Positions 1,167 through 15,280 are shown, numbered from the stretch's first letter. The stretch is DNA of 64,000 bases from an uncultured Candidatus Saccharibacteria bacterium (GCA_964356915.1 CAYHJF010000002.1:148522-212521), one strand, 5' to 3'. A program made the numbers and translations. Notes: a model not told the origin generated them from the letters alone.

Positions 1167-2701
1167 AGTTTCTTTTCCTCAAATAACGGCAATATAAAAA
1201 GAACGACAGCAAAGACCATCGCTACAAGGGCCAGAATCATATAATAATACTGCTCCAAGGAAATGCCTTGATGAACAAAATAATGATTAAACAAAAAACT
1301 GCTACTTTCTTGTTTCTGAAAATATTCAAAAGCACGAGCAATACCATAGCGCGCACCTAATGGATCGGCCTCAATCTTGGGAGGCACCGCATTTGTCGTA
1401 AGCGCGCCCATGAGGCTTACCGCGGAAGAATATATTATAAACAAGAAAGCAGTCATGCGTCCCGTCCACTTCCACGATGCATGAGAAAGAAAATCAGCAA
1501 TAAAGAGACTTAATACGGCCATTGTTGGTATCAGATAACGCGGACCAAATGCCCAGCCCCCCCACGGATCACCCCAACTAGAATACAAAAAAACGTTGAT
1601 ACCGATGAGCGAGTACAAAATACCAAGCTCCAAGTTAACCCGTCCAGCACTCATGAATAACCCAAGAATGCCCAGCAAAAAAATAGGAGCGTACAAAAAT
1701 AGACCTCTATCACGCGAAAACATCAATACATTAAACCCGCGCGCGAGTTTTTCCTCTGCAAAAAACCGTACGATATTACTTTTACGTGTTGCCAGCTCTT
1801 TAAGTTTTTCTTTGCCCCCATCATCCTGAATAATGTTCTCTTCGATAATAGATTTGTATCCAACCAAGCTACCGCTTAATCTTTTCCAACTACCAAATTC
1901 TTGATGGTTATAATAACCATGTAACGCAATCAACATAATAAATATTACTGATGTAAGAAAAAAAGTTGGGCGCGCATTAATTTTCAATCCTTCATCATTC
2001 AATCTATATTTAACCGAAACAATAAAGAAATAAATAATAACGGGAAAGATTAAGAGTGCATTCGGATAGTCAATCGCAATACCGTACCCAAAACAGAACC
2101 AGACATAGACTCCCCAAAACCATGACCACCGACCGGCATCCTTGTATCGCCATACGGCATAAAAAGATGACAGAATAAAGAATGTAGTCACATGGTGTTG
2201 GTACAATGTAATAGCATAGCTCCATGAAGAAGCCGCAAACCCAAAAATTAATGCCGCGAGCAGCGCCAACGCAACAGACAAGTTAAGAATCTTACGCCCA
2301 ATTAGAAAAAGAAAAACTAAATTTAAAATCGCAAATAAAGAAATAACGGAGAAAGCACCGACTTGAGCAACCTGATAGCTCTTCCCAATCAAGTAGAATG
2401 GAAGCGCTAACAGTGAGATACCGGGCGCGAAATATACATAGAATCTACCTTCATAATATCCAACGTCTGGATAAGCCGCATCCGCAAGCTCTTTTGAAAG
2501 AGCAAAGGATTTATTCTCTGCTAATGACACGGTGAGCAGATAACGCCCACGCTCAGGCGAAAGCTCAAGAGGCTTTGTTGTCTGGTCAAGATTATTTTTT
2601 ACTTCACTCGATGCAAAATTGCCATATACGCCGCGCAAAGTAAGTCCGTAAAGCACGGCACCAAAGAAAATCAGAAATAATATCGCAAATACATTTTTCA
2701 T
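1163..2701 (-). CDS. GT-C-fold integral membrane glycosyltransferase (ArnT/PMT-like)
   Basis: 512 aa with more than 10 predicted TM helices, acidic/aromatic loop 'DVGYYEGRFY' near the N-terminus, and a C-terminal soluble domain. Its stop overlaps the start of the next gene. Confidence 0.5.
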   Translation of the reverse strand: MKNVFAILFLIFFGAVLYGLTLRGVYGNFASSEVKNNLDQTTKPLELSPERGRYLLTVSLAENKSFALSKELADAAYPDVGYYEGRFYVYFAPGISLLALPFYLIGKSYQVAQVGAFSVISLFAILNLVFLFLIGRKILNLSVALALLAALIFGFAASSWSYAITLYQHHVTTFFILSSFYAVWRYKDAGRWSWFWGVYVWFCFGYGIAIDYPNALLIFPVIIYFFIVSVKYRLNDEGLKINARPTFFLTSVIFIMLIALHGYYNHQEFGSWKRLSGSLVGYKSIIEENIIQDDGGKEKLKELATRKSNIVRFFAEEKLARGFNVLMFSRDRGLFLYAPIFLLGILGLFMSAGRVNLELGILYSLIGINVFLYSSWGDPWGGWAFGPRYLIPTMAVLSLFIADFLSHASWKWTGRMTAFLFIIYSSAVSLMGALTTNAVPPKIEADPLGARYGIARAFEYFQKQESSSFLFNHYFVHQGISLEQYYYMILALVAMVFAVVLFILPLFEEKKL

Positions 2702-3897
2702 ATAATCCCCCTCTTTGAAAGCACCTTATACAAACGATTTTTATTGTAGGCGCCATCAAAATACGTAACTCCATCTCGAATGCGCCGGAAAAAACTGATC
2801 TTTTCTGACTTTAAAAGTACGTCTCGCAAAACTTGCTGTAATTCCTCGTCTTGATTTTTGCGCTCCAGTTCGCAAAGGCTTGCCTCAAGGTGCACGCGCA
2901 CACCTGGAGAGCGTGCATCAATTTTACAAACTGCGCGCAAATCTAATGGTCGTGTAAAGGCTCCTGATTTATCTAAAACATTGGCAACTCGCAATTCAAT
3001 CATCGTACGTAAACATTTTTCACATGCACCACAATTATATTTACCGGCTACATTCTTATAGCATACCCTTAAATGCTCTAAAGCGTTATCGGAATTAGCA
3101 ATATATCGAGAAACCTTCTGAACACGGTTCGCTTCATTGCCATCATGAATAATTTTTGTAGCCTCTGTAGACCACAAAGGATCTAGCGCTGGGTGCGAAC
3201 CCCAAGGGAAAAGCTGCTCATAAGAATCAGTTGATGGTATATAAACCCTCTTTAACCCCGCTCTCAACATCAGTGCAACACCGCAGAGAGCTCCGCCATG
3301 TCCCCAATCCCAACTAATCATTTCATCCAAAATCTCTCGAATATTAGTACGCAAAAATATAACCTCTACATCCTCTGCCTCCGCAATTTTTCGAATACGT
3401 GCGGAAGTTTCCTCAAAAAGAGCTTTATTTAATAGATCAATATCAAAACCGTGCACAAAAATTAAATGAGTTATTTTTTCACCACCCTCTTTCTTATTTT
3501 TTAAAAAAGTATAAAAAGAATCCACCCCACCTGAGAAAAATGCACCTATGCACGTTGGCGAATAAGCACTGTCGTTGAAACTTCCTCTTGTATAGATCCG
3601 ACTATTAGAGTCGCGCCTGAATCCCCAAGAATTGTAAACTTCCTCGATCGATCTTAGGTTCTGATAATTTCTAGCATTAACTTGACCATCAATAATTAAG
3701 TCAAATCCTTTATTAGCAAACGCTGGGAAAAAACAAGCAAGAAAAATACTGGCATCAGATGCAAGGAAGGATTCGTATTTTTCATCAACTTCAAAATAGA
3801 GCTCTTTTTTCTTCCCAAAACCAAGTAGATCCGCTGAAAGCGCTACTGTCCCGTGTTTATTTGTTGTAATAATATTTTGTATTGTTATTGAATTCAT
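2698..3897 (-). CDS. PP-loop ATP pyrophosphatase superfamily protein, possibly an N-acetyl-sugar amidotransferase-like enzyme
   Basis: SGGVDS PP-loop motif ('FFSGGVDSFYTF'), C-terminal CGACEKC cysteine cluster, embedded in a glycosyltransferase operon. Confidence 0.55.
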   Translation of the reverse strand: MNSITIQNIITTNKHGTVALSADLLGFGKKKELYFEVDEKYESFLASDASIFLACFFPAFANKGFDLIIDGQVNARNYQNLRSIEEVYNSWGFRRDSNSRIYTRGSFNDSAYSPTCIGAFFSGGVDSFYTFLKNKKEGGEKITHLIFVHGFDIDLLNKALFEETSARIRKIAEAEDVEVIFLRTNIREILDEMISWDWGHGGALCGVALMLRAGLKRVYIPSTDSYEQLFPWGSHPALDPLWSTEATKIIHDGNEANRVQKVSRYIANSDNALEHLRVCYKNVAGKYNCGACEKCLRTMIELRVANVLDKSGAFTRPLDLRAVCKIDARSPGVRVHLEASLCELERKNQDEELQQVLRDVLLKSEKISFFRRIRDGVTYFDGAYNKNRLYKVLSKRGII

Positions 3898-5114
3898 ATG
3901 TTAGAAAATACTTTTTCCCAACGATTACGTTCGGCGATCTGGATTTCTGCCACCCTTTTATTTAGCGACTCCGATAGCATTGCCCGCGCTTCGTATGCTT
4001 TCTGTAGCAAATTATACAAAGCATCAACGGTTACCGCTTCACACGAAATAACATAGTCTTGCATCCCCAAATCCTCCCCGATACCTTCTGTTTTATATTC
4101 ATAGCTAATAGCAACAAATGGTATGCCCTGCGTTGCGGCAATAATATTCGAATGCATCCGCATCCCAAGCAATAATTCTAAACGACCGTAAGTATCTATG
4201 GCATCATCGACATCTTTCACAAAATGAACTGGCAATAAATTCACACCTAACTTTTCCAACTTACCCATAACACGTCTCACTACCCGTTCGTCGTCCTCTT
4301 CAATAAGTGTTGTGCTTACTTGCACAATAGGCTGGACATGCATGCCCCTCACCTTACAGAAAGTAGCCAAAGCTCTAACCACCTCCTCTTCAAAAAAAGA
4401 CTGTCGCTGCTTAGGCAACCAATTTCTCAATGTTAAACCAAGAACAAGATTTTCCCTTTTTGTAAGTAGTCGCTTCGACCCTAAGAGCGCGGAATCAAAA
4501 CCACGCCTTATATTAGAAAGTCTGTAACTTTCGAGCTTATGGTAAGAATAACCCTCACGCAAAATAACAAGGTTTAAATAAGACAAGGCTATAGCTGAAA
4601 TACGCTCTTGCCATTTATAATAAAATGGACCAAAGCTTATTGGCATTACAATAACTTTTTTACAAAGCAACCTAGCAGTGTAGATCATCAAAAGTTGCAT
4701 CATTAGATTTAGAGTCTGCTTGACCCCACTTTTTGACCGTAAATAACCTCCTCCGGGGAAAACTATTAGATCTGCCTGGGCATAATCATCAAGTAAATCT
4801 GCTAAATATGACTTCTTTGGTAAGCTAAAACTAAGTTGATAAAAAAATAGACGAACTAAAAATTCAAAGAACCTTAAAAAACGAACTCCTGCTTTAGGAT
4901 TATCAAAAACAACCCAAGAATATATTGTATGTTTAAGTGAACTAGCAAAAGAACTATCAGTATATAAATTTGGATCACTACTATGAACTACTGGCCGTAC
5001 GGATGGAAAAATATTTCTCAGCAGCTCTATTTCACTCAACAAAATAGCCTGATCTCCAGGATTTCTTGGACCAGTTGCGTGAGGAATCAAAATTTTTTTT
5101 ATTTCGTAGCTCAT
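3894..5114 (-). CDS. Polysaccharide pyruvyl transferase family protein (CsaB/WcaK-like)
   Basis: N-terminal 'GPRNPGDQAIL' (GxxNxGD) and C-terminal 'MRMHSNIIAATQGIPFVAISYEYK' motifs typical of the PS_pyruv_trans family. Confidence 0.7.
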   Translation of the reverse strand: MSYEIKKILIPHATGPRNPGDQAILLSEIELLRNIFPSVRPVVHSSDPNLYTDSSFASSLKHTIYSWVVFDNPKAGVRFLRFFEFLVRLFFYQLSFSLPKKSYLADLLDDYAQADLIVFPGGGYLRSKSGVKQTLNLMMQLLMIYTARLLCKKVIVMPISFGPFYYKWQERISAIALSYLNLVILREGYSYHKLESYRLSNIRRGFDSALLGSKRLLTKRENLVLGLTLRNWLPKQRQSFFEEEVVRALATFCKVRGMHVQPIVQVSTTLIEEDDERVVRRVMGKLEKLGVNLLPVHFVKDVDDAIDTYGRLELLLGMRMHSNIIAATQGIPFVAISYEYKTEGIGEDLGMQDYVISCEAVTVDALYNLLQKAYEARAMLSESLNKRVAEIQIAERNRWEKVFSNI

Positions 5115-6022
5115 CTTAATTCCTTCGATGACCTAGCAATATCCCATTTACTCCGCGTTGACTGCACATTAACAGGCAACAAGCGAGTTAATAACATTGC
5201 AAAACAATAATACAAAAAATAAATAGGGTGAGACACGAAGGTGCTTATAGTAAACTTTAATTTCAGTACAAGAGGAACCCTAAACTGCTCATCAATAAAT
5301 GCCTCTGAAAAATATTGAGAAAAAACTATTTTTGAATGCACAAAACGCTGGCTTTGTTTTAAATAGTCAAAGAAATTATCAGGAGATCGAAACATTACAA
5401 CAGCACTCTTCTGATAAGAAAAAGAATATTCTTGAGAGCGGCAACGCAAATAAGAGTAAACATCTTCTCCAACAACATCAACTGGCCACTTTAGCGTACT
5501 GGTAAATTCTTTTGAAAAGGCGCGAGCCGCTCCGCGACATAAATACAAATTATCTCTATTATTCATATTCAAAAATATATTCTCACGGAAATAAAAACCA
5601 AACGACATAACACGCTCAAAAAAAGTACCTCCCATCTGCGGCGACAAAGCAGCGCCTACAATACCTATATTCTCATTAGTATAAAATGGTTTTACTATTT
5701 CTCGTAAAAAATATTCGTTTGTTGGCAAAACGTCTGCATTCAACAAAACCAGAATATCGCCTTGAAAAAGTTTGAGAATATCATTTTGCCGCTCAGCCTG
5801 GCCTTTTCGATCTTTATTATCAACAACAAAAATTTTATCTGATGTTATAGACCGAGCCTCCACAACAGTCTTATCACTACTCCCATCTGAAATTACGATA
5901 ACTTCTTTCAGAACAAATCCTTCCTCTTTCTGACCTAAAAGAGCCGACAAGAGACGCTTGATGTTTGCCTCTTCATTGTAGGCGGGAATACCAATTGAAA
6001 GTGTAAAAAGATTCTTATTCAT
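5111..6022 (-). CDS. Family 2 glycosyltransferase (GT-A fold)
   Basis: 'SIGIPAYNEE' N-terminal motif and 'VISDGSSD' DXD-like region. Confidence 0.8.
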   Translation of the reverse strand: MNKNLFTLSIGIPAYNEEANIKRLLSALLGQKEEGFVLKEVIVISDGSSDKTVVEARSITSDKIFVVDNKDRKGQAERQNDILKLFQGDILVLLNADVLPTNEYFLREIVKPFYTNENIGIVGAALSPQMGGTFFERVMSFGFYFRENIFLNMNNRDNLYLCRGAARAFSKEFTSTLKWPVDVVGEDVYSYLRCRSQEYSFSYQKSAVVMFRSPDNFFDYLKQSQRFVHSKIVFSQYFSEAFIDEQFRVPLVLKLKFTISTFVSHPIYFLYYCFAMLLTRLLPVNVQSTRSKWDIARSSKELR

Positions 6023-6926
6023 ACGCTCTCCCTAAATTCTTTGTGGACAACGACACCCTCCAAAGCGGGTTTGCGGAGCCCCATAAAAAAGCGTGAAATC
6101 GTGCCCCAATATGCATTGCGCTATACGCGCCTACAAGTGTTGGAGATTCCCAGCCCGCCCGTACTAGAGCAATGAAATATTTTCTATGTGGAAAGTACTT
6201 ATGTCTTGCGATAACATCCGCAGATACATACTTTTGAAGTTGTTTATGGCTTGCAGCAAAACGTGCATACTTGTGAAAATAATCAAATACTGTCCCCGCG
6301 GAACGATAATATGTCACCGCGTCACCTTCAAACATCGTACGAAATCCAAGCTCTTTTGCTTTTAAAAATGTAAGTGCATCTTCAGGAGCATCAGGCATAA
6401 AACGCATCCTCTTTGCAAAAGACCGCGACAACGCTTTCCCAGAATGACAGAGAAAAAAATCACTCTCTACATTTTCCATGCATATGCGTTTCTTAACGCG
6501 ATCGGCGAGAGTCAGAGATCTTTCAATAAACCCTCCTCCTGACTGCGCCACGGAAAGCCCGAATACAAGATCTGCCGTACAGCTCCAAATCGGGTACGTA
6601 AGCAATGCAAGATAATCAACAGTCTCAAGCCTTGTGTCTGCTTCAAGAAATATAAGTGCATCGCTTTCAAATATTCCAAGAATTTCATTTTGACACTGCG
6701 CCTGACCAACACGTACATCTCTTTCGATCAAACGAACACGTACATCTGGCACCCCTCGAACAATATCTGCCGTTTCATCAGTACTTCCATCTGAAACAAC
6801 GATAATCTCTTTGATCATAAAATGTGGCGTTCGCTGAGTGCGCACCTCCTCAATAAGACGGGCGATATTCCCTTCTTCATTGTAAGCTGAAATGCCAATT
6901 GAAACGGTCAGCAGATTATTTTCCAT
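6015..6926 (-). CDS. Family 2 glycosyltransferase, tandem paralogue of 5111..6022
   Basis: 'SIGISAYNEEGNI...VVSDGSTDET', colinear with the neighbouring GT2. Start trimmed to the internal Met (MENNLL) so that it does not run deep into the upstream gene. Confidence 0.7.
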   Translation of the reverse strand: MENNLLTVSIGISAYNEEGNIARLIEEVRTQRTPHFMIKEIIVVSDGSTDETADIVRGVPDVRVRLIERDVRVGQAQCQNEILGIFESDALIFLEADTRLETVDYLALLTYPIWSCTADLVFGLSVAQSGGGFIERSLTLADRVKKRICMENVESDFFLCHSGKALSRSFAKRMRFMPDAPEDALTFLKAKELGFRTMFEGDAVTYYRSAGTVFDYFHKYARFAASHKQLQKYVSADVIARHKYFPHRKYFIALVRAGWESPTLVGAYSAMHIGARFHAFLWGSANPLWRVSLSTKNLGRAYE

Positions 6927-9327
6927 ACAAAATCTCCAGACACTCGGCTGATTTTTCATCCCACCCAAAATGACTTGCCCATAATACTGCTTCTCGTTCC
7001 ATGCCAGTACGGACTTCGCGACCATGGATAAGTTCGGAAATTTTTTCTGCAAACGCCTTGGCATCACCGTGCGGAACCAAATAACCAGTATGCGGGTTCC
7101 GTACTGAATCACGTAAACCCGGAACATCTGCGGCAACGACCGCTACTCCACATGCATTTGCTTCTATTGTTGTAATACCCCACCCCTCCATAAATGAGGG
7201 ATTTACAAAAACCCATGCGCGCTGTAACAAGCGCGTCTTTTCAGAGTCAGAAATACCTCCAGCGAATCGTACACTCTGACTAATTCCAAGTGTGCGCGTT
7301 AAATCTTTCAGTACCATCTCCTCCTCTCCTCGACCTGCAATCACCAATTCGGCTTCAGGAAATTTATGGACTACATACTTAAACGCGCGAAGAAGTACAT
7401 CGACAGATTTATATTTCTTGAGCCGGCCAACGTACACGACTAAGGGATGATCGCTCTTCTCACCCGGCCTCAACCGCGCGAGATCAACTCCAGGATGTAC
7501 CACTGAAATACGCGCCCCTCGAATACCCAGAAATCGCTCCATTCCTTTCTTTGTAGACTCAGAAATAGTGATAAATTCAACTCCTCGATATGCCCACGGC
7601 ATTACGGTGTTTTCAAGAAAGGCCGCAAAAAGCGCAAGAACTCTTGGTAACGAATGATAAAAAACATCTTGATGAACATGGAATAAAAGCGAATAAACTT
7701 TTTCCTTTGCGTATAGCGGAGCAAAAAATGGCACGCCGTTCTGACAGTCAACAATAATATCAAATTGCCCTCGAAAACGAAGTAGATAATAGAAAAATGC
7801 CCACACATACACAAAGTAAAACCCACCGCGCCGAATAATTCTTACCCCATCTATTTCTTCTTCGCGCTTTGATTTACCATCATTACCACAAAAAATTGTA
7901 ACGCTATTACCTGTAGCAACCCAACGCTTCGCAAATTCATGAATATGAATTTCAGCGCCTCCTGCAAATGCATGTTTGGTATCACGCCAATTAAAAATCA
8001 AAATACGCTTACCTGACTCTAGCGCCGGACGCTCACTCCGAAATGGTCGCGCGATATCAACAAGATCAATCAGCGCCCGTAAAATAAACTTTCCATTACG
8101 GAGTAATATGTGTAGCACCGTCATTACACCAAGCGTCAACACGCTTGAAAAAAGCATAACGTTTGAAATTGCAACGATAGAACTGTGCGATCGCATGATC
8201 CCAAGCGCCATCACGCACGCCATAACAAGCATTGTAAATGGAAACAGATAATGTTTGCGTGCAAGATGATACGCATTAAAGGCGCTGGCAAGCGTAAGAC
8301 ATGTGATCGCAAGCGCATACGTAGGCAAATACGGTAAAATGCCAAGCGCTCGCTCGCCGAGCAGTATGGGCACAATTTTACTGCCAAAAATACCAAGGGC
8401 GCTATACGCTCCAAACGTTAATACGCATGCCCCGGCAAAAATACGATAAAAGATTTTATTTGGATTCTTATGTGCGCCCTCAGCATTTGCAATAAACGTA
8501 ATCATGAATCCATTGAGCAACGAACCAAAAAAATAAATCATTTTCCCAACAAGAGACAATAAAGCATACTGACCCGCGAGTTCTGGATTGAGATAATGTT
8601 TGGCAAGCACTAAATCAAATGTTAAATATGCAATACCAGAAAATCCTGAAATAAACGAAGCTATGTAGAAAGTTTTTGGAAATACGAGTGGCTTTTCAAT
8701 ATCCTCGTCTTCTAACCGACGAGCCGCGCGCGATGCAAACCATTGCGCAACAAAAAGCCCCGCGATAAGTGAAGTAGGAAAAGACAATACAACCCACTCT
8801 CTCAATCCTCTCTCGACTAATATATATACAACGCCCAGTTTAACGATCGCTTCGACAAAAATCGCAAACCCAACTGCGGCAAAAAAGAACTGCCCTTGCA
8901 AGAACCCCTTACTCGCTGATGTGATAATAATAACCGGTAACACAAGCGCGAAAAGGCCAAGCACCCATGTATGCTCAATATGAAAAAACGCTCCTAACGC
9001 AGGAACAACGGCAAACCAAACAAGCGCCACCCCAAGCGATACAAAAAATGCTCTTCGCTGAATACGGCGAAAAAAAACAACGCTTGCCGATGCATGCCCC
9101 TCTCCAACTTCATATGAGGTTACATAATTAACAGTCGCCCCAAGCGCACCCGCCGCAATACCAATGAGCAATAATAATGTTCCAAAGAGCGTCAGTACAC
9201 CAAACTCTTCTGGAGCAAGTCTCCTACCGAGATATGCGTTAAAAACAAAATTCAAAAAATTTGCACCCATAAGTGCGCCCGTAAGAAATGCTCCTCCAGA
9301 AATTAGGCGCACAAATTGCTTTTTCAT
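6916..9327 (-). CDS. Fusion protein: N-terminal Wzx-like polysaccharide flippase (MOP superfamily, ~430 aa, multi-TM) joined to a C-terminal GT4 glycosyltransferase
   Basis: The N-terminus resembles polysaccharide-biosynthesis/flippase proteins with ~12 TM helices. The C-terminus carries the GT4 EX7E region 'PSFMEGWGITTIEANACGVAVVAADVPG'. The two halves form a single 803-aa ORF. Confidence 0.7.
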   Translation of the reverse strand: MKKQFVRLISGGAFLTGALMGANFLNFVFNAYLGRRLAPEEFGVLTLFGTLLLLIGIAAGALGATVNYVTSYEVGEGHASASVVFFRRIQRRAFFVSLGVALVWFAVVPALGAFFHIEHTWVLGLFALVLPVIIITSASKGFLQGQFFFAAVGFAIFVEAIVKLGVVYILVERGLREWVVLSFPTSLIAGLFVAQWFASRAARRLEDEDIEKPLVFPKTFYIASFISGFSGIAYLTFDLVLAKHYLNPELAGQYALLSLVGKMIYFFGSLLNGFMITFIANAEGAHKNPNKIFYRIFAGACVLTFGAYSALGIFGSKIVPILLGERALGILPYLPTYALAITCLTLASAFNAYHLARKHYLFPFTMLVMACVMALGIMRSHSSIVAISNVMLFSSVLTLGVMTVLHILLRNGKFILRALIDLVDIARPFRSERPALESGKRILIFNWRDTKHAFAGGAEIHIHEFAKRWVATGNSVTIFCGNDGKSKREEEIDGVRIIRRGGFYFVYVWAFFYYLLRFRGQFDIIVDCQNGVPFFAPLYAKEKVYSLLFHVHQDVFYHSLPRVLALFAAFLENTVMPWAYRGVEFITISESTKKGMERFLGIRGARISVVHPGVDLARLRPGEKSDHPLVVYVGRLKKYKSVDVLLRAFKYVVHKFPEAELVIAGRGEEEMVLKDLTRTLGISQSVRFAGGISDSEKTRLLQRAWVFVNPSFMEGWGITTIEANACGVAVVAADVPGLRDSVRNPHTGYLVPHGDAKAFAEKISELIHGREVRTGMEREAVLWASHFGWDEKSAECLEILYGK

Positions 9328-11552
9328 ACGTGTTCCTCCGCGGTTAATTGAGCATCAACCAATTCTTGCCCAATGATATTTCGTGCCTGAATCTGTGCCT
9401 TTTGATGTACGAGATGAAATCCATGGATCGTCTTCTGCCAATAATGTGGACGAACAACCATCTCATACATCGCCATCCACGCTGCCCCTGACATAGAAAG
9501 CCAATAAAAAGGCACGAAAAAAACATACATAATCAAATCGTCGTACCCGCGCTTTGCACATGCAACCATGTAATAGTACAAATACAAAAAATTCCCAAAC
9601 ACAAACGATAATACGCCCATAATGAGAATCGGTCCTGGGAAGAACGGCTCAATGATTGGACCAGCGATCGGACGAAACGCAAAGTAAGTAAAAGTAATAA
9701 CCCACATGAGCGGGTTAATAAACATCGAAAGAATCTTACCGCCAACAATAAACTGAAATGCGACGAGATGTGGCTCAGACATACTTTGCTTGAATGCGCG
9801 AGGGTTCCGCATATGAACAAGGTATGTTTGAATATAGCCCTTGATCCACCGAGAGCGCTGACGAAACCAGTTTTTATACCGACTCGTCCCCTCCTCCATT
9901 GTCATAGAATCAACGATCGCTGTCTTATGCCCTTGCTTCACAAGTCGCATACCAAGATCACAATCCTCCGTCACATTAAACGCATCCCAACCTTTAAGCT
10001 CTACGAGATCATCGGTACGGAAATGATTTGATGTACCTCCAAGTGGGATTGGCGCGTTGATGGACTGCAATCCCGTAAGAACTAAATCAAACCATAGTGA
10101 GTACTCTGCCGCAAAAATACGCGTCAAAATATTTTGATGCGAGTTATAAAAGTTTAACTTTGCCTGCACACACACAACATCGGGTCCCGATCTTTGAAAC
10201 GCAAGAACTGCTTTTTTTAGCTGATCGGAGTCAGGGACATCTTCCGCATCATAAATCACGGAGTAGTCTCCCGTCGCATAAATCAAACCGTAATTACATG
10301 CCTTTGGCTTTGTCTTTGGCATTGAATGTGGCACGACCGTAATTTCAAAATTCGGCGGCAAGTCATATGCCTTTGCTCGTTTTACCGTCTCAACATCATC
10401 TTCTTCAAGCAATAACATAATCTGCAATCTATCTTTTGGATAATCCAAACGACTCATAGCAGTCACGAACTGTGGTAATACTTGCCACTCTTTGTAGAGC
10501 GGACAAAAAATTGTATATGTCGGCCACGCCTCATCGGGTATCGCATCAATTTCTTCTTTTGTAACTTTGATTTCTGTAGGACGCGTAAAACTCCGGACGA
10601 TCAAGAATAAGTTGAAGATAAGATCAGCAAAATACAACGTCGTCAGCGCCGCTATCAATATTAAGAGCGTCATATGCCAGTTAGCTATTAGGCTCCCAAC
10701 AAAAAACACTCCGACTGCCATGAGCGTCAACATTTGTGGACGACTCATACGATAAAGAGCGCTTTCGGCATGGCTAAGTTCTGTATGATTCACAAATGGG
10801 CTCCCAGCGTGGTGAAAACCATTCCCCCGCTTTTTCATCATTTTTCCATGAAAAGGAATCGGTTCCGGACGAGTCAACTTTAAACGAAGCGCCGATATGC
10901 CGATTTCCCACGATGCTTTGAGCACATTAATTTTTGATTCTCCCGCGTATCGTTCTCCGAATACGATATCAACGTTCCCAATGCGATAACCTGCGCGCAT
11001 TGCTTTTACCAAAAATTCCATGTCGAACGCCCACGGAGCAGGGTTAAGCGTAATACGTTCAATGATCTCCTTTCGAAAAACCTTGAGACCAGACTGCGTA
11101 TCCACATCGAGACCGTGGAGTGCTCGCGCAAAAATAAAATGAAATGTCTTACTTACAAATGCACGGAGTGCTCCTTCGTGATGCTCTGTTCGATTCGCCA
11201 CAACAACATCACTCTCGCCATCTTCAATTGCCTCAACCATTTTAGGAATTGCTTCTGGAGGATATTGCAAATCGGCATCGATCATCGCGATGAAAGAATA
11301 TTTTGCGCAAGCAAATCCTTCGATCAGTGACTGTGCCTTGCCTCGCGCACCAATTTTACGAAACGAACGGATTGGATATGCTCGAGTAAGCCGCTTTAGC
11401 TCTGACCATGTCTCATCCTCTGAATGATCATCAATAAAAATAAGCTCATAATTGAGCTTAGCGAGTTCACACGTGCGATGAATACGCCGTACGAGCGGAG
11501 CGACATTTTCACCTTCATTACGAGTGGGGACAATGATTGAAATGCGGCGCAT
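9324..11552 (-). CDS. Bifunctional GT2-GT2 glycosyltransferase: DPM1-like N-terminal domain, then a processive QxxRW-type GT2 domain, with TM segments between and after
   Basis: 'IIVPTRNEGENV', 'DDHSEDET' and 'DADLQ' in domain 1; 'YDAEDVPD' and 'QRSRW' in domain 2. The first ATG is at 11552; the longer track ORF begins at an upstream TTG. Confidence 0.7.
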   Translation of the reverse strand: MRRISIIVPTRNEGENVAPLVRRIHRTCELAKLNYELIFIDDHSEDETWSELKRLTRAYPIRSFRKIGARGKAQSLIEGFACAKYSFIAMIDADLQYPPEAIPKMVEAIEDGESDVVVANRTEHHEGALRAFVSKTFHFIFARALHGLDVDTQSGLKVFRKEIIERITLNPAPWAFDMEFLVKAMRAGYRIGNVDIVFGERYAGESKINVLKASWEIGISALRLKLTRPEPIPFHGKMMKKRGNGFHHAGSPFVNHTELSHAESALYRMSRPQMLTLMAVGVFFVGSLIANWHMTLLILIAALTTLYFADLIFNLFLIVRSFTRPTEIKVTKEEIDAIPDEAWPTYTIFCPLYKEWQVLPQFVTAMSRLDYPKDRLQIMLLLEEDDVETVKRAKAYDLPPNFEITVVPHSMPKTKPKACNYGLIYATGDYSVIYDAEDVPDSDQLKKAVLAFQRSGPDVVCVQAKLNFYNSHQNILTRIFAAEYSLWFDLVLTGLQSINAPIPLGGTSNHFRTDDLVELKGWDAFNVTEDCDLGMRLVKQGHKTAIVDSMTMEEGTSRYKNWFRQRSRWIKGYIQTYLVHMRNPRAFKQSMSEPHLVAFQFIVGGKILSMFINPLMWVITFTYFAFRPIAGPIIEPFFPGPILIMGVLSFVFGNFLYLYYYMVACAKRGYDDLIMYVFFVPFYWLSMSGAAWMAMYEMVVRPHYWQKTIHGFHLVHQKAQIQARNIIGQELVDAQLTAEEHV

Positions 11553-11861
11553 AAAAAATAGAGACCGAGGGACATACCTACCTTGTATCTGTCCACTTGG
11601 AATCGATAAATTATTACATATATTGTCCGATATGTCAATATCTGGTTGCGCCAAAAAGTTGTTTATTTATAAGCAAAAAGTAAAAATCCGACCTCTTAAT
11701 AAGAAGCCGCGCATTATGGTGTATTGATTACAGCTGACTAAAGTTTGCTATTTTAATAAAATATCGACGTAGTAATGCCCTAGAAAATTCTTTACTGGCA
11801 AATAAAAAGGTCCGATTCCCCGTAGGAAACCAGACCTCAACTTCGGAGCTGAAAGCTCCTT

Positions 11862-13190
11862 TTAGTGAACGAAATTGACCTGAATGCTATTGCCTCCAGC
11901 CCGCCAAAGGCCGGTGGACGCCCACTCCTGATCATCGATGCTGACCTGAACGGTCAGATAGAGATCGGTAATGCCCGAGAATTCCTCGTAGGCACGAACG
12001 CGCACGATGTACTGGGTCGGGCCACCATGAGCACCGATACTGACCTCATAGAGGCCGCCTCGAATGCCGGGACCAGACTTTGCGGTTGGATCCTTGAACT
12101 TCCATCGCTTGGCCGTACCAGCTCCATGCACCAGATCTCCAGGCTGGAGACAGGCTGACCATATCTTGCCCTGCGTCGCATTGGCGAGCAGAAAGCAAAC
12201 CGTCTTGGTCTCAGGCGCAAAGGGCTCGCCGGGGATGATACCTCCCGAAGCCTTGAAGTGGTCCTTGGCCGGATTCCTTACATTGAATACGATCCGCGCA
12301 GGATCACGTTCGAACAAATCGCAATCACAGTCTGCGGCATCGACACAGTCGACGAGTCCATCGTCGTCATTGTCGTTGTTATCGTGGCAGACTTCCTGCT
12401 TGTTGCAGCTATTGTCGCACGCATCAGTATTGATCTGGTTGCCGTCATCGCACTCTTCATTTCCTTCGACGACGCCATTTCCACAGATCTGCTCGAACCC
12501 GCAACTCGCGCTACAGCCATCGCCACCGCGCATCGTGCAGAGCCCGTCGCCGATACCAACGCAATTTGCGTCGGCAACACACAACGTGCCATTGCTACAA
12601 TGCTTTCCATCATCGCACTGCTCACCACTCTGTGTGACTCCATCGCCACACAACGGGAAACACGGATAGAGATTCGAGTGAAGCGCGCTGGCAGGCAGCG
12701 AATTATTTGGATACGGCTCCCAAAACGGGACGTTCCAATCGTGACTATGCAACGCGCAGATCTCATCGCCAACGGCGTCCGAGCATGAATTGATGACGCT
12801 CCACTGCGTCTGGATCCCCCATCCATAGAGAGTCTGAGGGTTACCATTCACGATGATGGTTCGCGTATCCAAACCGCAGAAGCACTGCAACACTTCGTCG
12901 CAAGGATTTTGTGGATCGGTACCAACACAATATGTATCATCGACTCCAAGAACGTTATGTTGATGATTGTCGGGATCAGGTACGAGTAGCGGGATCACGG
13001 TGCCATCGGGAAGAATATCTCCGATGATGCCGTGCCAATCGTTGGGACCATGATGGGATGCGTGATCACCAAACACGAAATGTCCATTCTGATATTGAAC
13101 GTCAGCACATGTTGGAAAATCTGGTCGCGTGGTCGCGAGCGCAACGCTCGCTGCACAGATACTTGCTATGACAAGGTACTTCTTCAGCAC
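11862..13190 (-). CDS. Secreted cysteine-rich repeat protein (Myxococcus-type CGxGxxExGEECDDGN repeats) with a His-rich N-terminal domain
   Basis: Signal peptide 'MLKKYLVIASICAASVALA'. Repeats 'CGDGVTQSGEQCDDGKHC' and 'CGNGVVEGNEECDDGNQINTDACDNSC'. Strong RBS AAGGAGGG ahead of a GTG start. GC-rich relative to flanking sequence. Confidence 0.65.
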   Translation of the reverse strand: MLKKYLVIASICAASVALATTRPDFPTCADVQYQNGHFVFGDHASHHGPNDWHGIIGDILPDGTVIPLLVPDPDNHQHNVLGVDDTYCVGTDPQNPCDEVLQCFCGLDTRTIIVNGNPQTLYGWGIQTQWSVINSCSDAVGDEICALHSHDWNVPFWEPYPNNSLPASALHSNLYPCFPLCGDGVTQSGEQCDDGKHCSNGTLCVADANCVGIGDGLCTMRGGDGCSASCGFEQICGNGVVEGNEECDDGNQINTDACDNSCNKQEVCHDNNDNDDDGLVDCVDAADCDCDLFERDPARIVFNVRNPAKDHFKASGGIIPGEPFAPETKTVCFLLANATQGKIWSACLQPGDLVHGAGTAKRWKFKDPTAKSGPGIRGGLYEVSIGAHGGPTQYIVRVRAYEEFSGITDLYLTVQVSIDDQEWASTGLWRAGGNSIQVNFVH

Positions 13191-13343
13191 TTCTCCCTCC
13201 TTTTGTGAGAGAACAGCCTTCCTCGCATACTACGAGGTGACAAATCAATATATACAATTTACGATATTTTGTCAATACATCTCTTTCAAAAAGCAACTTT
13301 CATCTTCATTACTATCTATATGTTTTTATACTTTCTGTCTTTT

Positions 13344-13380
13344 TAAATAAAAATCCAATGGCACGCCTAGCATGCCATTG
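13344..13380 (-). terminator. Rho-independent terminator downstream of the 13405..14361 gene
   Basis: Inverted repeat CCAATGGCA/TGCCATTGG followed by a T-run on the minus strand. Confidence 0.5.
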
Positions 13381-13404
13381 GCTTGGGACTTCGATAGTTC
13401 TTGT

Positions 13405-14361
13405 TTAGAGAACCTTGCGATATTTACAGTACCGATGAAGGCTCATACAGAGACGCCCGATGTACCTCTTCTCGGCCCTTGTGATTCTGCCTGGGTAGAC
13501 AGCCATTTGACGATCTTTGCAATCCCAGAGCACATCCTTATGTTCAGGACGCACAACACATGGATCGTTATTCTGACATGGTGGTGTGATGATCACGGGA
13601 CAACAGGAGTTACACTCTTGCTGCGGAGGACAAGCTTCCGGACACTCGTCCGGCGGGGGGCACGTATTGTCGCACCCCTCAAGCGTGCAGTGATTGCTAC
13701 ACGCATCGCTGTCCACCCGATTACCATCGTCACATTCTTCATCATCTTCGACGATGCCATTACCACAACCCTTCTCGATATTGCAGTTGGCATCACAGCC
13801 ATCGCCGTCAACACGATTATCATCATCGCACACTTCTCCGACATTCAGCGTGCCATTACCGCACTGCGGGCGACACGAGTAGAATACCGAGTGAAATGCG
13901 ATGGCGGGAGGACCATTCGGTCCACCGTCATAGAACGGGAAGTTCCAGTTGCGCCCGTGAAGAGCACAAACCTCGGGGGCGACTGCCTCCAAACATGTAT
14001 TGGCGATACGCCACTGGGTCTGGATCCCGAGCCCATCAGGCACGTCGGGATCGCCCAACGAACAGTAGCACTGAACGAATCGATTGGGATTGTTTGGATC
14101 CCTATAGACATCGTCGACGCCAAACAGGTTGCGAGACGGCAGAATTGTGGTGTCGGGCAACCTGCCGCCAATGATGCCATGGGCATCACCTGGATTGTGA
14201 TGCGACGCATGGTCGCCCAGTACGAACCGTCCTCCATCGAACTGCATCTCGGGACACGTGATGAACCTCGGGATGCTCGGAATCGGCGTCGGCGGGAGCA
14301 CCACTGCTTGAGCGATACTCGCGACCATCGCGAGTATCATGACTGCAAAGAACTCTTTCAT
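13405..14361 (-). CDS. Secreted cysteine-rich repeat protein, paralogue of 11862..13190, with a distinct basic Cys-containing C-terminal tail
   Basis: Shares the N-terminal domain (GDHASHH...HGIIG...GIQTQW...CALH...WNFPF) and the CGNG..CDD repeats with the neighbouring paralogue. AAAGGAGG RBS 6 nt before the ATG at 14361. The longer track ORF starts further upstream and is probably an over-call. Confidence 0.65.
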   Translation of the reverse strand: MKEFFAVMILAMVASIAQAVVLPPTPIPSIPRFITCPEMQFDGGRFVLGDHASHHNPGDAHGIIGGRLPDTTILPSRNLFGVDDVYRDPNNPNRFVQCYCSLGDPDVPDGLGIQTQWRIANTCLEAVAPEVCALHGRNWNFPFYDGGPNGPPAIAFHSVFYSCRPQCGNGTLNVGEVCDDDNRVDGDGCDANCNIEKGCGNGIVEDDEECDDGNRVDSDACSNHCTLEGCDNTCPPPDECPEACPPQQECNSCCPVIITPPCQNNDPCVVRPEHKDVLWDCKDRQMAVYPGRITRAEKRYIGRLCMSLHRYCKYRKVL

Positions 14362-14458
14362 GTCTGTCTTCCTCCTTTTGGTAGACATAGACGTCTGCCG
14401 AGAATACGGCAATGCGACCCACTTCCTAAAGTGAACTATTTTTAGGATAATAGAACCC

Positions 14459-15280
14459 ATGACCTCCATTTCCTCTTATACTGCCGCACTTCTATTAGGC
14501 TTCTTACAAGGTATCACTGAATTTTTGCCTATCTCCTCTTCTGGGCATCTCATCGTCGCGGAAGAATTTATGGGCCTAAACCCCTCTGCGTGGCTTTCTT
14601 TTGACGTAGCACTCCACGTCGCAACCGCATGCGTTGTATTATTTTATTTTCGAAAAGAATGGCAAGAAATGATTAAAGCATTCTTTCAACGCTCATCTGA
14701 TAACTCTCGACGACTTTTACTTCTCAACATTATCATCGGGACGATTCCCGCAGGAATTGCCGGCATTCTTGCTGAAAAAATCATTAGCGAACATGTACGA
14801 AATATTCAAATTGTGGCAATTGGACTTATCCTTGGAAGCGGTATCATGTGGGGGGCAGAAAAACTTTACTCCATGCGTAAAAAAGAAGGTTCTGCAATTG
14901 AAAAACCATTCTCTCCATTTGAGAGCTTTCTTATTGGATGCTTTCAGGCGCTCGCCCTCTTTCCTGGACTATCACGTTCTGGAGCAACAATTTCCGGAGG
15001 CCTCATTCTTGGTCATGATCGATATCACGCGACTAAATATTCTTTTTTACTCGCCACGCCAATCATTATAGGAGCATCTCTCAAAACATTTTCAGACAAC
15101 CTCACGCATATTGGCTCACAGGATATACCGATTTTTTTTATCGGCTTTGTCACTGCATTTATCACTGGCTACGCATCACTGCACTATCTCATTCGTCTCA
15201 TGAAAACAAATACGCTCAGGCCGTTTATTATTTATCGACTTTGCCTGGCGGTAATACTCTTTGCAGTTGTCTTGTTTTAA
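14459..15280 (+). CDS. uppP: Undecaprenyl-diphosphate phosphatase
   Basis: 'GITEFLPISSSGHL' and 'PGLSRSGATISGGL' signature motifs of BacA/UppP. Confidence 0.9.
   Translation: MTSISSYTAALLLGFLQGITEFLPISSSGHLIVAEEFMGLNPSAWLSFDVALHVATACVVLFYFRKEWQEMIKAFFQRSSDNSRRLLLLNIIIGTIPAGIAGILAEKIISEHVRNIQIVAIGLILGSGIMWGAEKLYSMRKKEGSAIEKPFSPFESFLIGCFQALALFPGLSRSGATISGGLILGHDRYHATKYSFLLATPIIIGASLKTFSDNLTHIGSQDIPIFFIGFVTAFITGYASLHYLIRLMKTNTLRPFIIYRLCLAVILFAVVLF

Follow-up and report, generated by a model that had tools for sequence, protein, structure and literature searches.

Organisation of the locus

The window is the whole stretch of DNA analysed here, 64,000 nucleotides from an uncultured Candidatus Saccharibacteria bacterium (GCA_964356915.1 CAYHJF010000002.1:148522-212521), and positions are counted from its first letter. 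Two adjacent genes on the minus strand, which we call B (9324–11552) and A (6916–9327), had been described in the first-pass annotation as fusion enzymes; both ORFs are present, and neither is interrupted by a stop codon or frameshift. Gene A starts with ATG and encodes an 803-aa protein (identical to P0001) that joins a MOP transporter domain to a GT4 transferase. Gene B encodes two GT2 domains with a membrane hairpin between them (AF2 model). Mechanical ORF calling extends B to a TTG codon (9324–11654, minus strand; 776-aa translation), but the ATG at 11552 is the better start, because the resulting 742-aa protein is identical to the NCBI-called P0121, alignments to homologues begin at its first residue, and a near-consensus promoter sits downstream of the TTG. 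This promoter-like site before B (11610–11638, minus strand) consists of TTGACA, a 17 nt spacer and AATAAT, with 11 of 12 matches and a TG before the -10 element. Since it comes after a terminator-like hairpin (11838–11807) that follows the DUF4215 gene upstream of B, we take B to be the first gene of the operon.

Stop and start codons of B and A overlap by 4 nt (ATGA, within the junction GTATGA, at 9324–9327 on the minus strand), and a GGAGGA is located 8 nt upstream of the ATG of A. The overlapping stops and starts reported for the rest of the operon are likewise real. Immediately downstream, a gene for a small GT2 of 303 aa (6015–6926; Pfam, and called as a gene in L001 and L002) shares 11 nt with the 3' end of A, and is followed by a gene for a second small GT2, also of 303 aa (5111–6022; Pfam). 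Next come genes for a CsaB/WcaK-like polysaccharide pyruvyl transferase (3894–5114), a 399-aa protein with the PP-loop motif SGGVDS (2698–3897), a 512-aa multi-pass membrane protein (1163–2701), and the start of a 941-aa protein (1–1166) that runs off the window and is listed in the gene table of L001, which covers the same DNA. All of these genes are on the minus strand. BacA and a DedA/VTT protein, which are associated with lipid-carrier recycling, adjoin the locus. The operon has at least nine genes, so the first-pass description of a minimal gene set is not apt.

The pyruvyl transferase matches PF04230 (E 8.7e-32) and also the CsaB model (E 4e-25, under the cut-off), and 10 of 83 related loci contain it. 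A homologue of the downstream small GT2 is found in 56 of the 83 loci, and in P0244 it forms a fusion with MOP-GT4. For the 399-aa protein, which had been called a PP-loop amidotransferase-like enzyme, the motif is present, the only other Pfam signal is QueC (E 0.015), and the 83 related loci contain no homologue. The 512-aa protein is a conserved partner of the module formed by B and A: it occurs in 34 of the 83 loci (28–54% identity), in 33 of them downstream and on the same strand. It has approximately 10 hydrophobic segments and an invariant P78-D79, and matches the LA_3751/LA_3752 putative glycosyltransferase model (E 5e-11, under the NCBIfam cut-off). Among its homologues, 3 of 23 match PMT_2 and 1 of 23 matches an Alg9-like family; a search of PDB sequences with the 512-aa protein gave no match. 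The 941-aa protein, with PMT_2-like and CarboxypepD_reg domains, is present in 10 of the 83 loci. We keep the two GT-C enzymes of the first-pass annotation as tentative assignments.

Domains of genes B and A

The N-terminal domain of B (Bn; residues 1–240, positions 10833–11552, minus strand) is a polyprenyl-phosphate glycosyltransferase resembling DPMS, GtrB and ArnC, as indicated by both sequence and structure matches. Residues 39–201 of the 776-aa translation match Glycos_transf_2 (Pfam, E 1e-42), and the domain contains the motifs DDHSED (41–46) and DADLQYPPE (92–100). The DPM1-like assignment of the first-pass annotation is borne out by the Pyrococcus furiosus DPMS structure 5mlz, which is matched at E 4.6e-32 by sequence and with an rmsd of 2.1 A and 32% identity by the structure model (Foldseek); the next sequence matches are ArnC (~1e-15) and GtrB (9e-14). 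On the strength of its GT-A domain, its DxD motif and its similarity to solved members, Bn belongs to the DPMS/GtrB/ArnC-type GT2 group. We leave its sugar unassigned, because Bn scores under every NCBIfam equivalog cut-off (78 against 325 for AglJ, 75 against 529 for ArnC, 36 against 370 for PpgS, and 48 against 375 for the Dol-P-hexose transferase). Like DPMS/DPM1, GtrB, ArnC and archaeal AglJ/AglD, Bn has the GT-A fold, the DAD(LQ) metal/donor motif, and juxtamembrane helices that precede a membrane hairpin. By contrast with these enzymes, the hairpin in B does not close the chain but continues into another GT2, of the synthase type. This hydrophobic stretch (residues 274–319, positions 10596–10733, minus strand; hydropathy and AF2 model) probably forms a two-helix membrane hairpin, since both GT domains must draw on nucleotide sugars of the cytoplasm and Arg and Lys are abundant on either flank.

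The C-terminal domain of B (Bc; residues 241–742, positions 9327–10832, minus strand) is a membrane-embedded GT2 of the BcsA/HAS type. Residues 378–658 of the 776-aa translation match two general synthase-type GT2 families, Glyco_tranf_2_3 (E 8e-34, 118 bits) and Glyco_trans_2_3 (E 1e-22, 81 bits), and Bc also matches the ceramide glucosyltransferase family Glyco_transf_21 (E 2.2e-13, 50 bits, above the cut-off). Its motifs are PKTKPKACNYG (412–422), YDAED (434–438), PLGGTSNHF (503–511), VTEDCD (527–532) and QRSRW (565–569), the last as expected for the QxxRW-type enzyme that had been proposed. The Escherichia coli BcsA profile matches Bc at E 3e-19 with every catalytic motif in register, the two pairing at PxYxE, K(A/P)xN, DxD, (F/L)xGxS, TED and QRxRW, and BcsA 4p00 is the top structural match (E 4.8e-16), with HAS also among the best. 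In an alignment of 37 sequences, more than 120 columns, including the catalytic motifs, are invariant. The D, DxD, TED and Q(R/Q)xRW motifs and the flanking membrane helices place Bc among the processive membrane GT2 enzymes; it falls under the equivalog cut-offs for BcsA and PgaC proper (CelA, 78 against 699; PgaC, 99.6 against 422), and PilZ is absent from the Pfam matches of B.

The membrane topology of Bc was considered using the AF2 model of gene B (pLDDT 87.5, pTM 0.82). DSSP analysis of this model assigns an N-terminal hydrophobic helix or hairpin at residues 271–323 and helices at 595–625, 640–667 and 671–700; in this single model and in hydropathy profiles, nothing membrane-like follows residue 711. 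After the last interface helix lies HYWQKTIHG (703–711, positions 9420–9446, minus strand), which is invariant among B homologues and kept in most fused ORFs. Gating-loop motifs are FxVTxK in BcsA and WGT(R/K) in HAS and chitin synthase, and HYWQKTIHG is a candidate for the equivalent element. Bc therefore appears, from the model, to have only about four membrane helices, with none past the putative gating loop. The tail after residue 700 is rich in Arg, Lys and His, and together with the hydropathy profile and the modelled structure suggests that the C-terminus is cytoplasmic. Relative to BcsA, HAS, chitin synthase and PgaC, Bc is distinguished by the lack of PilZ, by its approximately four predicted helices, and by always preceding a MOP transporter, in many cases within one chain. 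NodC likewise has a small number of membrane helices and relies on a separate transporter for export, and is for these reasons the nearest functional precedent for Bc.

The N-terminal domain of A (An; residues 1–430, positions 8038–9327, minus strand) is a 12-TM transporter domain of the MOP superfamily, probably of the PST/Wzx-like kind. Pfam annotation recovered the three GT domains of B and A, with matches far beyond chance, but not this one: residues 1–429 of A match no Pfam family even at E<=10, and homologues and a structure model were needed. The AF2 model of A has a pLDDT of 87.4 and a pTM of 0.85, and Foldseek matches An to MATE 6hfb, MurJ 9ukv and WzxE 9g95 with a probability of 1.0 and TM scores of 0.62–0.77. 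Against the PDB as a whole, 49 matches had E<=0.001 over 420–470 columns (TM 0.5–0.77), and all are MATE, MurJ or WzxE proteins except 5c6n, which is titled only "protein A". This twelve-helix fold, shared with Wzx/PST proteins, MurJ and archaeal AglR, puts An in the MOP superfamily, in agreement with the flippase-like domain of approximately 12 TM helices described earlier. Among 25 homologues of An, 8 match Polysacc_synt (PF01943; best E 7.6e-8) and one matches MatE; matches to Polysacc_synt_3 were also found. In the test against PF01943 and PF13440, homologue P0246 scored 32.0 bits where the cut-off is 28.2, and PF13440 is passed by P0249. An appears to be PST/Wzx-like, with the proviso that Foldseek does not separate MATE-type exporters from lipid-linked-sugar flippases, since MATE entries rank top. 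It forms a subfamily of its own (891 representatives at E<=1e-30), with R35, H244 and G252 among its invariant residues. Unlike An, known Wzx and MurJ proteins stand alone.

The remainder of A (Ac; residues 431–803, positions 6919–8037, minus strand) is a cytoplasmic GT4 transferase of the GT-B fold. Residues 456–780 match Glyco_transf_4 and Glycos_transf_1 (E 1.6e-42), with scores of 145.4 bits for PF00534 and 71.4 bits for PF13439, and the EX7E motif, EGWGITTIE (residues 714–722, positions 7162–7188), is kept in nearly all related ORFs. With both Pfam domains over the gathering score and the motif present, Ac belongs to GT4. Two of the NCBIfam GT4 models that it matches are PelF and phosphatidylglycerol GlcNAc transferase, and all NCBIfam equivalog matches at this locus are far under their cut-offs. 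The linker between An and Ac is conserved, with D421, P428 and K440 almost invariant.

Conservation of the module across CPR/Patescibacteria

Among the matches listed, at least 120 full-length homologues were found for A (42–52% identity, 93–100% coverage) and at least 120 for B (56–70% identity), nearly all labelled Patescibacteria. The order Bn-Bc-An-Ac is unchanged in 83 related loci. In at least 20 untruncated loci all four domains are encoded by a single ORF of approximately 1,550–1,750 aa, so that the position of the B/A junction is occupied by an in-frame linker in at least 20 related genomes; 16 loci are split as here, and 16 have Bc-An-Ac, with Bn the one domain missing. Chimeric assembly of the four-domain ORFs is very unlikely given that they come from at least 20 independent genomes, and the fused forms keep their catalytic motifs. 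The distance from the HYWxKTxHG motif of Bc to the first motif of An is 62 residues when summed over the split in the window, and has a median of 74 (range 41–225) in the fused proteins. The fusions had been called unusual, which is so by comparison with textbook bacteria but not within CPR, where comparison of homologous loci indicates that they are the norm.

The module is also variable. Bn is missing from about a fifth of the related loci, and some Parcubacteria have another DPM1-type GT2 ("MDADNSV") at the same N-terminal place. Other exceptions lack GT4, have Bn-Bc beside a GT4-less MOP protein, or have An-Ac with Bc absent within 7 kb. The absence of Bn, GT4 or Bc from some loci argues that the four activities are not strictly interdependent. 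The MOP domain is fused elsewhere to transferases of the operon, as MOP-GT2, MOP-GT4-GT2 and MOP-GT2-GT4, and serves as a hub for covalently attached GT4, GT2 and synthase domains. The main new result is that B and A are two halves of one module, a split copy of a four-part membrane machine that is conserved across the ultra-small CPR/Patescibacteria and that probably builds part of their cell envelope. With about even confidence, we read it as an inner-membrane glycan-assembly module whose two halves are translationally coupled here. A literature search found no paper describing this four-domain architecture.

Several known systems contain some of the same parts. In Pel polysaccharide secretion, PelF is a cytosolic GT4, PelG is a MOP/PST-like membrane protein and the glycan is secreted; PelF/PelG comes closest to being an unfused counterpart of gene A. 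However, the locus lacks PelD/PelE partners, its GT4-MOP pair is also coupled to two GT2 domains, the GT4 falls under the PelF cut-off, and PelG matches neither An in the window nor its 25 homologues, so that A does not belong to Pel by sequence. The three-component extracytoplasmic glycosylation systems GtrA/GtrB/GtrC, CsbB-GtcA-YfhO and Haloferax AglD-AglR-AglS share with the locus a DPM1-like donor synthase, a flippase and GT-C-like transferases, and mycobacterial LM/LAM synthesis (Ppm1, PimA/B, GT-C) shares these parts and also cytoplasmic GT4 steps. The three-component systems and LM/LAM synthesis rely on separate proteins and are not known to include a BcsA-type GT2. In mycobacteria, the partner to which Ppm1 is joined is instead an Lnt-like domain.

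Models for glycan assembly and export

The first-pass annotation suggested a lipid-linked glycan pathway, and we infer the same logic. The model that we prefer, with middling confidence, is that a lipid-linked glycan is made inside the cell, carried across by the attached MOP domain, and then completed by GT-C enzymes on the outer side. At the cytoplasmic face, the glycan would be built by Bc, Ac and the small GT2 enzymes on polyprenyl monophosphate or another membrane lipid, acceptors that are probable because the gene tables of L001, L003 and L005 contain no WecA/WbaP-type phosphoglycosyl transferase. The glycan may also be pyruvylated at this locus. With approximately four membrane helices, Bc would probably be unable to export its own product, and would pass it to the MOP domain, whether neighbouring or covalently linked, for transfer across the membrane. 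Bn would make a polyprenyl-phosphate monosaccharide that, once outside, could serve as donor for the GT-C-like enzymes, which would extend or attach the glycan there. Most likely, the pathway makes a cell-envelope glycopolymer or glycoconjugate. As counterpoints, BcsA-type synthases usually export their own polymer without a flippase, and NodC-type relatives release soluble oligosaccharides.

A first alternative, which we consider rather improbable, is that two independent export systems have merely been compacted. Bc would then be a self-sufficient synthase that both makes and extrudes a cellulose-, chitin- or PNAG-like homopolymer, and the separate MOP-GT4 protein would combine the roles of PelG and PelF in one chain and would make and export a second, lipid-carrier-independent polymer, with Bn supplying only a decorating sugar. 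Consistent with this, Bc has all the catalytic motifs of a processive synthase and matches BcsA and HAS best in structure and profile; some loci have MOP-GT4 but no Bc, and others pair Bn-Bc with a MOP protein that lacks GT4; and CPR genomes are compact, gene overlap being the rule in this operon. However, unless Bc and MOP cooperate physically, it is hard to account for the fixed order and for their repeated fusion in many lineages, and Bc is predicted to have about four membrane helices as opposed to eight in BcsA, with none after the putative gating loop. Although PelF is among the GT4 models matched, it scores 40.6 bits where the cut-off is 100, and Pfam PelG is matched by no member.

A second alternative, also unlikely in our judgement, is a glycolipid or lipoglycan pathway built on a diacylglycerol-type anchor instead of a polyprenyl-linked repeat unit. 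Here Bc, as a GT21-like enzyme, and the GT4 (compare PimA/PimB and Acholeplasma MGS/DGS) would glycosylate a membrane lipid, the resulting glycolipid would be flipped by the MOP domain, and GT-C enzymes would extend it outside with the polyprenyl-phosphate sugar made by Bn, as Ppm1, PimA/B and the GT-C mannosyltransferases do for mycobacterial LM/LAM. The presence of a DPM1-like domain alongside a GT4 and GT-C-like partners resembles that logic; the D,D,D,QxxRW set is also found in non-polymerising lipid glucosyltransferases; the match of Bc to Glyco_transf_21, that of Ac to phosphatidylglycerol GlcNAc transferase, and the lack of a phosphoglycosyl transferase in the operons examined point the same way. 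Nevertheless, the GT21 score is far below those for the general GT2 families of synthase type, Bc matches BcsA best in both structure and profile, and a CsaB-type pyruvyl transferase points to a cell-wall polymer. Finally, the idea that the fusions are artefacts of assembly or gene calling, with two genes merged through a missed stop or frameshift, has in its favour that the source is a metagenome-assembled genome and that in related locus L036 the GT4 part lies in another frame, but it is refuted by the uninterrupted ORFs, the identical A protein in independent ENA, Logan and NCBI MAG assemblies, more than 100 collinear homologues per gene from many studies, the conserved linker, and AF2 models of A and B that are confident across the domain junctions.

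We also consider a more novel reading of the four-domain protein, here split in two, that we regard as distinctly doubtful: a new mode of bacterial glycan export, in which a BcsA-type synthase that has lost the distal part of its channel is docked, often covalently, to a MOP transporter that completes translocation, with the initiating polyprenyl-phosphate transferase and the GT4 working within one polypeptide. CPR bacteria would make their core envelope glycopolymer in this way, and it might be a pyruvylated wall polymer to which the S-layer is anchored. If true, this would be an export mode beside the Wzx/Wzy, ABC-transporter and synthase-dependent routes.

Domain composition and integrity of the two fusion proteins

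Gene B (window 9324..11552, minus strand) encodes two GT2 domains. Residues 3-209 (Bn, the DPM1-like N-terminal GT2) matched the dolichyl-phosphate mannose synthase of P. furiosus (E 4.6e-32), with ArnC and GtrB as the next matches, and in an AlphaFold2 model of the protein (pLDDT 87.5) this domain superposed on dolichyl-phosphate mannose synthase with an rmsd of 2.1 Å and 32% identity. The second half (Bc, the BcsA/hyaluronan synthase-like GT2) matched the Pfam families Glyco_tranf_2_3 and Glyco_trans_2_3 and contains more than 120 invariant positions. A profile of Bc aligned with E. coli BcsA (E 3e-19) with all catalytic motifs in register (CPLYKE/VPTYNE, KPKAxN/HAKAGN, YDAED/FDCDH, LGGTS/FCGSC, VTEDCD/VTEDAH and QRSRW/QRIRW), and its closest structural matches were BcsA (4p00, E 4.8e-16) and hyaluronan synthases. 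Equivalog scores all fell far under their cut-offs, so no sugar can be assigned from scores.

Gene A (6916..9327, minus strand, 803 aa, ATG start) ends in a GT4 domain (Ac; Pfam Glycos_transf_1, E 1.6e-42, and Glyco_transf_4, E 1.2e-19), with the EX7E motif EGWGITTIE at residues 714-722. Residues 1-429 (An) contain about ten to twelve hydrophobic helices and had no match in Pfam, even with the cut-off relaxed to E<=10. A single-sequence search of the PDB with this half returned only noise, and orexin-receptor matches in a PDB profile search covered one hydrophobic stretch and were rejected as compositional. Because neither the Pfam nor the PDB sequence searches gave a meaningful match, recognition of the fold required structure prediction. 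Among 25 aligned homologues of gene A, eight matched Polysacc_synt (best E 7.6e-8) and one matched MatE. An AlphaFold2 model of the N-terminal half, built on the homologue alignment, had a pLDDT of 87.4 and a pTM of 0.85. Apart from one entry titled only 'protein A', the significant Foldseek matches of this model in the PDB were all members of the MOP superfamily (MATE 6hfb, MurJ 9ukv and WzxE 9g95, with TM-scores of 0.62-0.77 over ~420-470 columns). An is accordingly modelled as a transporter with the MOP fold, of the PST/Wzx kind; fold comparison by itself does not distinguish lipid-linked-sugar flippases from MATE proteins of the drug type. Membership of gene A in the Pel system was rejected on Pfam and NCBIfam scores, including those of the 25 homologues. 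Taken over Pfam, homologues, profiles and AlphaFold2/Foldseek comparisons, the four assignments of the first-pass annotation (flippase, GT4, DPM1-like GT2 and processive-type GT2) all stand.

We found a protein identical to that of gene A in an NCBI MAG labelled Patescibacteria, in an ENA groundwater assembly (ERZ1292625) and in the Logan assembly of ERR3858121. At least 120 homologues of gene A align at 42-52% identity over 93-100% of the query (most over at least 97%), and they also conserve the linker that joins the MOP and GT4 domains; the 120 homologues of gene B listed from 3,404 matches have 56-70% identity. Together, the separate assemblies, the near-full-length homologues and the conserved linker exclude an uncalled frameshift or stop between the halves of the two proteins that had been read as fusions, and they count against misassembly, so that an artefactual origin of the fusions is extremely improbable.

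A four-domain module in related loci

Roughly one quarter of the gene A homologues among the matches listed are 1,300-1,400 aa long and carry a synthase-type GT2 ahead of the MOP domain. We retrieved 80 loci from species-representative genomes with the MOP-domain alignment, and placed Bn, Bc, An and Ac on the loci by tblastn and stop-to-stop ORF analysis. The domain order Bn-Bc-An-Ac was constant in all loci mapped, and covalent linkage was frequent. Counting untruncated cases only, with conservative thresholds, all four domains lie in one ORF (~1,550-1,750 aa) in 20 loci, and are split into Bn-Bc and An-Ac as in the window, usually in overlapping or abutting genes, in 16. A further 16 loci have Bc-An-Ac, several of the longer ORFs of this type holding a divergent Bn under the detection threshold; three have Bn-Bc and An without the GT4, and three have An-Ac without Bc nearby. 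Genes B and A are one module rather than two separate oddities. No second copies of the four domains were found elsewhere in the window, which contains one copy of the module only.

In the fused proteins, 41-225 residues (median 74) separate the invariant Bc motif HYWxKTxHG from the first motif of the MOP domain, and the 62 residues in the window, summed over the stop/start overlap, fall inside this range. The fused proteins keep the catalytic motifs YDAED, TED, QxxRW and EX7E intact, and most keep the Bn motif as DADLQ or DGDLQ. The window's Bn motif is of the IDADLQYPPE type; that of one related locus (L055) is degenerate (IDPESEYPPE). A different DPM1-type GT2, with the motif MDADNSV, takes the first position in Parcubacteria-type four-domain ORFs (L024, L034, L051, L053, L062, L075 and L076), and from its motif it looks like a replacement that keeps the function of the N-terminal slot.

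Fused forms occur in Roizmanbacteria, Woesebacteria, Curtissbacteria, Amesbacteria, several Parcubacteria, Doudnabacteria and Saccharibacteria, and split forms in Gottesmanbacteria, Levybacteria and the window's genome. This interleaving of architectures among lineages points to repeated fusion or fission. Since many related contigs have uninformative or doubtful taxon labels, the description of the module as CPR-wide rests on the named loci, which belong to Microgenomates, Parcubacteria, Doudnabacteria and Saccharibacteria. L006 (a 1.57-Mb contig), L013, L015, L017 and about 30 other contigs with a CPR-type module have TPA titles such as 'uncultured Gammaproteobacteria', 'Bdellovibrionales' or 'Pseudomonadales', and lone matches are labelled Verrucomicrobiia, Limnocylindria or Methylomirabilota; the non-CPR titles probably reflect placeholder labelling or errors in binning. 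Some CPR genomes contain two copies of the module, sometimes of unlike architectures (L012/L016 in one MAG, L042/L048 in another), and the proteins P0158/P0185 are listed as a further such case (contigs both 157,864 bp).

A search of 1.84 billion representative proteins with the MOP-domain profile yielded 891 representatives at E<=1e-30. The best 150 matches fall into length classes of 400-530 aa (stand-alone or truncated), 700-775 aa (MOP-GT2) and 776-865 aa (MOP-GT4), and also include three-domain and four-domain forms. Pfam scans confirmed MOP-GT2, MOP-GT4-GT2, MOP-GT2-GT4, Bn-Bc-MOP and MOP-GT4-acyltransferase proteins, so that the MOP domain serves as a hub for fused partners; in one related protein (P0244), a GT2 is fused after MOP-GT4, in the position of the window gene at 6015-6926. 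Individual proteins carry other combinations: P0116 continues from MOP-GT4 into an Acetyltransf_6 (FemAB-like) domain, P0286 has APH-kinase-like and GrpB domains after the MOP domain, and P0205 and P0212 have the two GT2 domains together with GT4 Pfam domains within ~1,155 aa, which leaves no room for a full MOP domain.

Operon structure and partner genes

The mechanical ORF of gene B (9324..11654, minus strand, 776 aa) has a TTG start at 11654, which we rejected because it lies upstream of a promoter-like site and because both the homologues and the protein called by NCBI start from the ATG at 11552. The latter start, used in the first-pass annotation, gives the 742-aa protein called by NCBI (P0121), with which homologues align from residue 1. 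The near-consensus promoter-like site, downstream of the TTG (11638-11610, minus strand), consists of TTGACA and AATAAT separated by 17 nt, with a TG before the latter (11 of 12 matches), and a terminator-like hairpin at 11838-11807 lies at the end of the upstream DUF4215 gene. Given the ATG start, the promoter-like site and the hairpin, gene B is the first gene of an operon, which extends along the minus strand to the edge of the window with overlaps of 4-11 nt between successive genes. Genes B and A meet at GTATGA, and GGAGGA lies 8 nt ahead of the ATG.

Directly upstream of the operon promoter, and ending in its own hairpin, is the gene for a Cys-rich, secreted-looking DUF4215-repeat protein (11862-13190, minus strand, 442 aa), of which we found no homologue among 83 related loci. 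G+C content is 0.52 at 12001-14000, around this gene, and 0.37 at 4001-6000, in the distal operon (second small GT2 and pyruvyl transferase), the window being typically at ~0.44-0.45. Two ORFs on opposite strands, 13372-14445 (plus, 357 aa) and 13405-14469 (minus, 354 aa), overlap almost completely; the plus-strand ORF is the gene called in L002, a contig with the same DNA, and has no Pfam family, and its antisense counterpart is probably a side effect of the high local G+C. Just outside the operon, the L002 gene table assigns by Pfam an undecaprenyl-diphosphatase (BacA) gene (14459-15280, plus strand) and a DedA/VTT-domain gene (15277-15900, minus strand), which are convergent with a 4-nt overlap.

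Partner genes were counted over the 83 related loci; contig ends truncate many of these. A ~300-aa GT2 like those encoded by the window's third and fourth genes is conserved in 56 loci, and a homologue of the 512-aa membrane protein in 34 (28-54% identity), lying downstream on the same strand in 33. Members of the 512-aa family share an invariant Pro-Asp in an early loop; three of 23 matched PMT_2 and one matched an Alg9-like family, and a PDB sequence search found no relative, so that sequence comparison weakly suggests a GT-C-like protein. A pyruvyl transferase and the 941-aa PMT_2/CarboxypepD_reg protein each occur in 10 of the 83 loci. The PP-loop protein (2698-3897, minus strand, 399 aa), encoded between the pyruvyl transferase and GT-C-like genes, has the motif FFSGGVDSFY and, in its C-terminal part, a CxxC pair; its sole Pfam assignment was a weak match to QueC (E 0.015), and we found no relative in the PDB and no homologue in the 83 loci. 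It appears from these searches to be a lineage-specific member of the operon. The distal, less conserved genes may represent a variable, exchangeable part.

A proposed assembly route and its significance

We propose a composite model for the module, covering topology, hand-off from Bc to the MOP domain, assembly on a polyprenyl or other lipid, and a donor role for Bn, and give it about even chances. Both GT2 domains and the GT4 would need cytoplasmic nucleotide sugars, for which reason the hydrophobic stretch at residues 274-319 of B would form a two-pass hairpin. The Arg/Lys/His-rich tail of B after residue 700 would be cytoplasmic, placing the C-terminus of B and the N-terminus of the 12-helix MOP domain on the same side of the membrane, as the fused proteins require. 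Judging from the secondary structure of one model and from analogy, Bc has about four apparent membrane passes and none past a putative gating loop, a provisional count, compared with eight membrane helices in BcsA and six in hyaluronan synthase. Where Bc and the MOP domain are fused, the latter starts exactly at the position of the helices missing from Bc. The few passes and this start position suggest that Bc would hand its product to the MOP domain rather than export it alone. Two independent systems, with Bc a self-exporting synthase beside a Pel-like MOP/GT4 pair, are an unlikely explanation of the locus. About as unlikely is a route of the LM/LAM type to a glycolipid or lipoglycan anchored on diacylglycerol, which would draw on the GT21 match of Bc, above threshold but comparatively weak.

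Under the composite model, the glycan would probably be assembled on polyprenyl monophosphate, in the style of archaeal Agl systems, or on another membrane lipid, since the operon lacks a phosphoglycosyl transferase; the gene tables of three loci contain no WecA- or WbaP-type initiating transferase. Assembly would be carried out by Bc, the GT4 and the small GT2s, with pyruvylation added in the window's genome, and Bn would supply a polyprenyl-phosphate monosaccharide that the GT-C-like enzymes would use as donor on the outer side. The BacA and DedA/VTT genes relate to the recycling and re-flipping of polyprenyl-phosphate, the carrier presumably used by the operon.

The four domains all come from well-known families, and the combination is new as far as the literature searched extends, in which we found no published description of the four-domain architecture, an absence that is not proof. 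To our knowledge, Wzx, MurJ and PelG occur as stand-alone proteins and BcsA-type synthases have no paired MOP transporters, and we know of no fusion of a DPM1-type enzyme to a synthase-type GT2. The module is not categorically new, because it shows no new fold or chemistry. Database names of its proteins are generic ('glycosyltransferase', 'glycosyltransferase XagB', 'glycosyltransferase.../O-antigen/teichoic acid export membrane protein').

Envelope formation and structure were described as unclear for all CPR studied in a Parcubacterium genome paper (PMC5220378), and the module is among the few envelope-related gene sets that combine strong conservation with a wide distribution across the radiation. 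Like a Rosetta stone, the natural fusions indicate that four activities usually studied apart act together, namely the synthesis of lipid-sugars, polymerisation by a synthase-type enzyme, transport by a MOP protein and transfer by a GT4. Natural four-domain orthologues include the 1,575-aa ORF of L010 and P0248 (1,563 aa), and a single protein of ~1,570 aa is an expressible target for biochemistry and cryo-EM, and cultivable Saccharibacteria carry the module, making genetics possible. If the hand-off from synthase to MOP domain is true, it would bear on how MOP transporters obtain their substrates.
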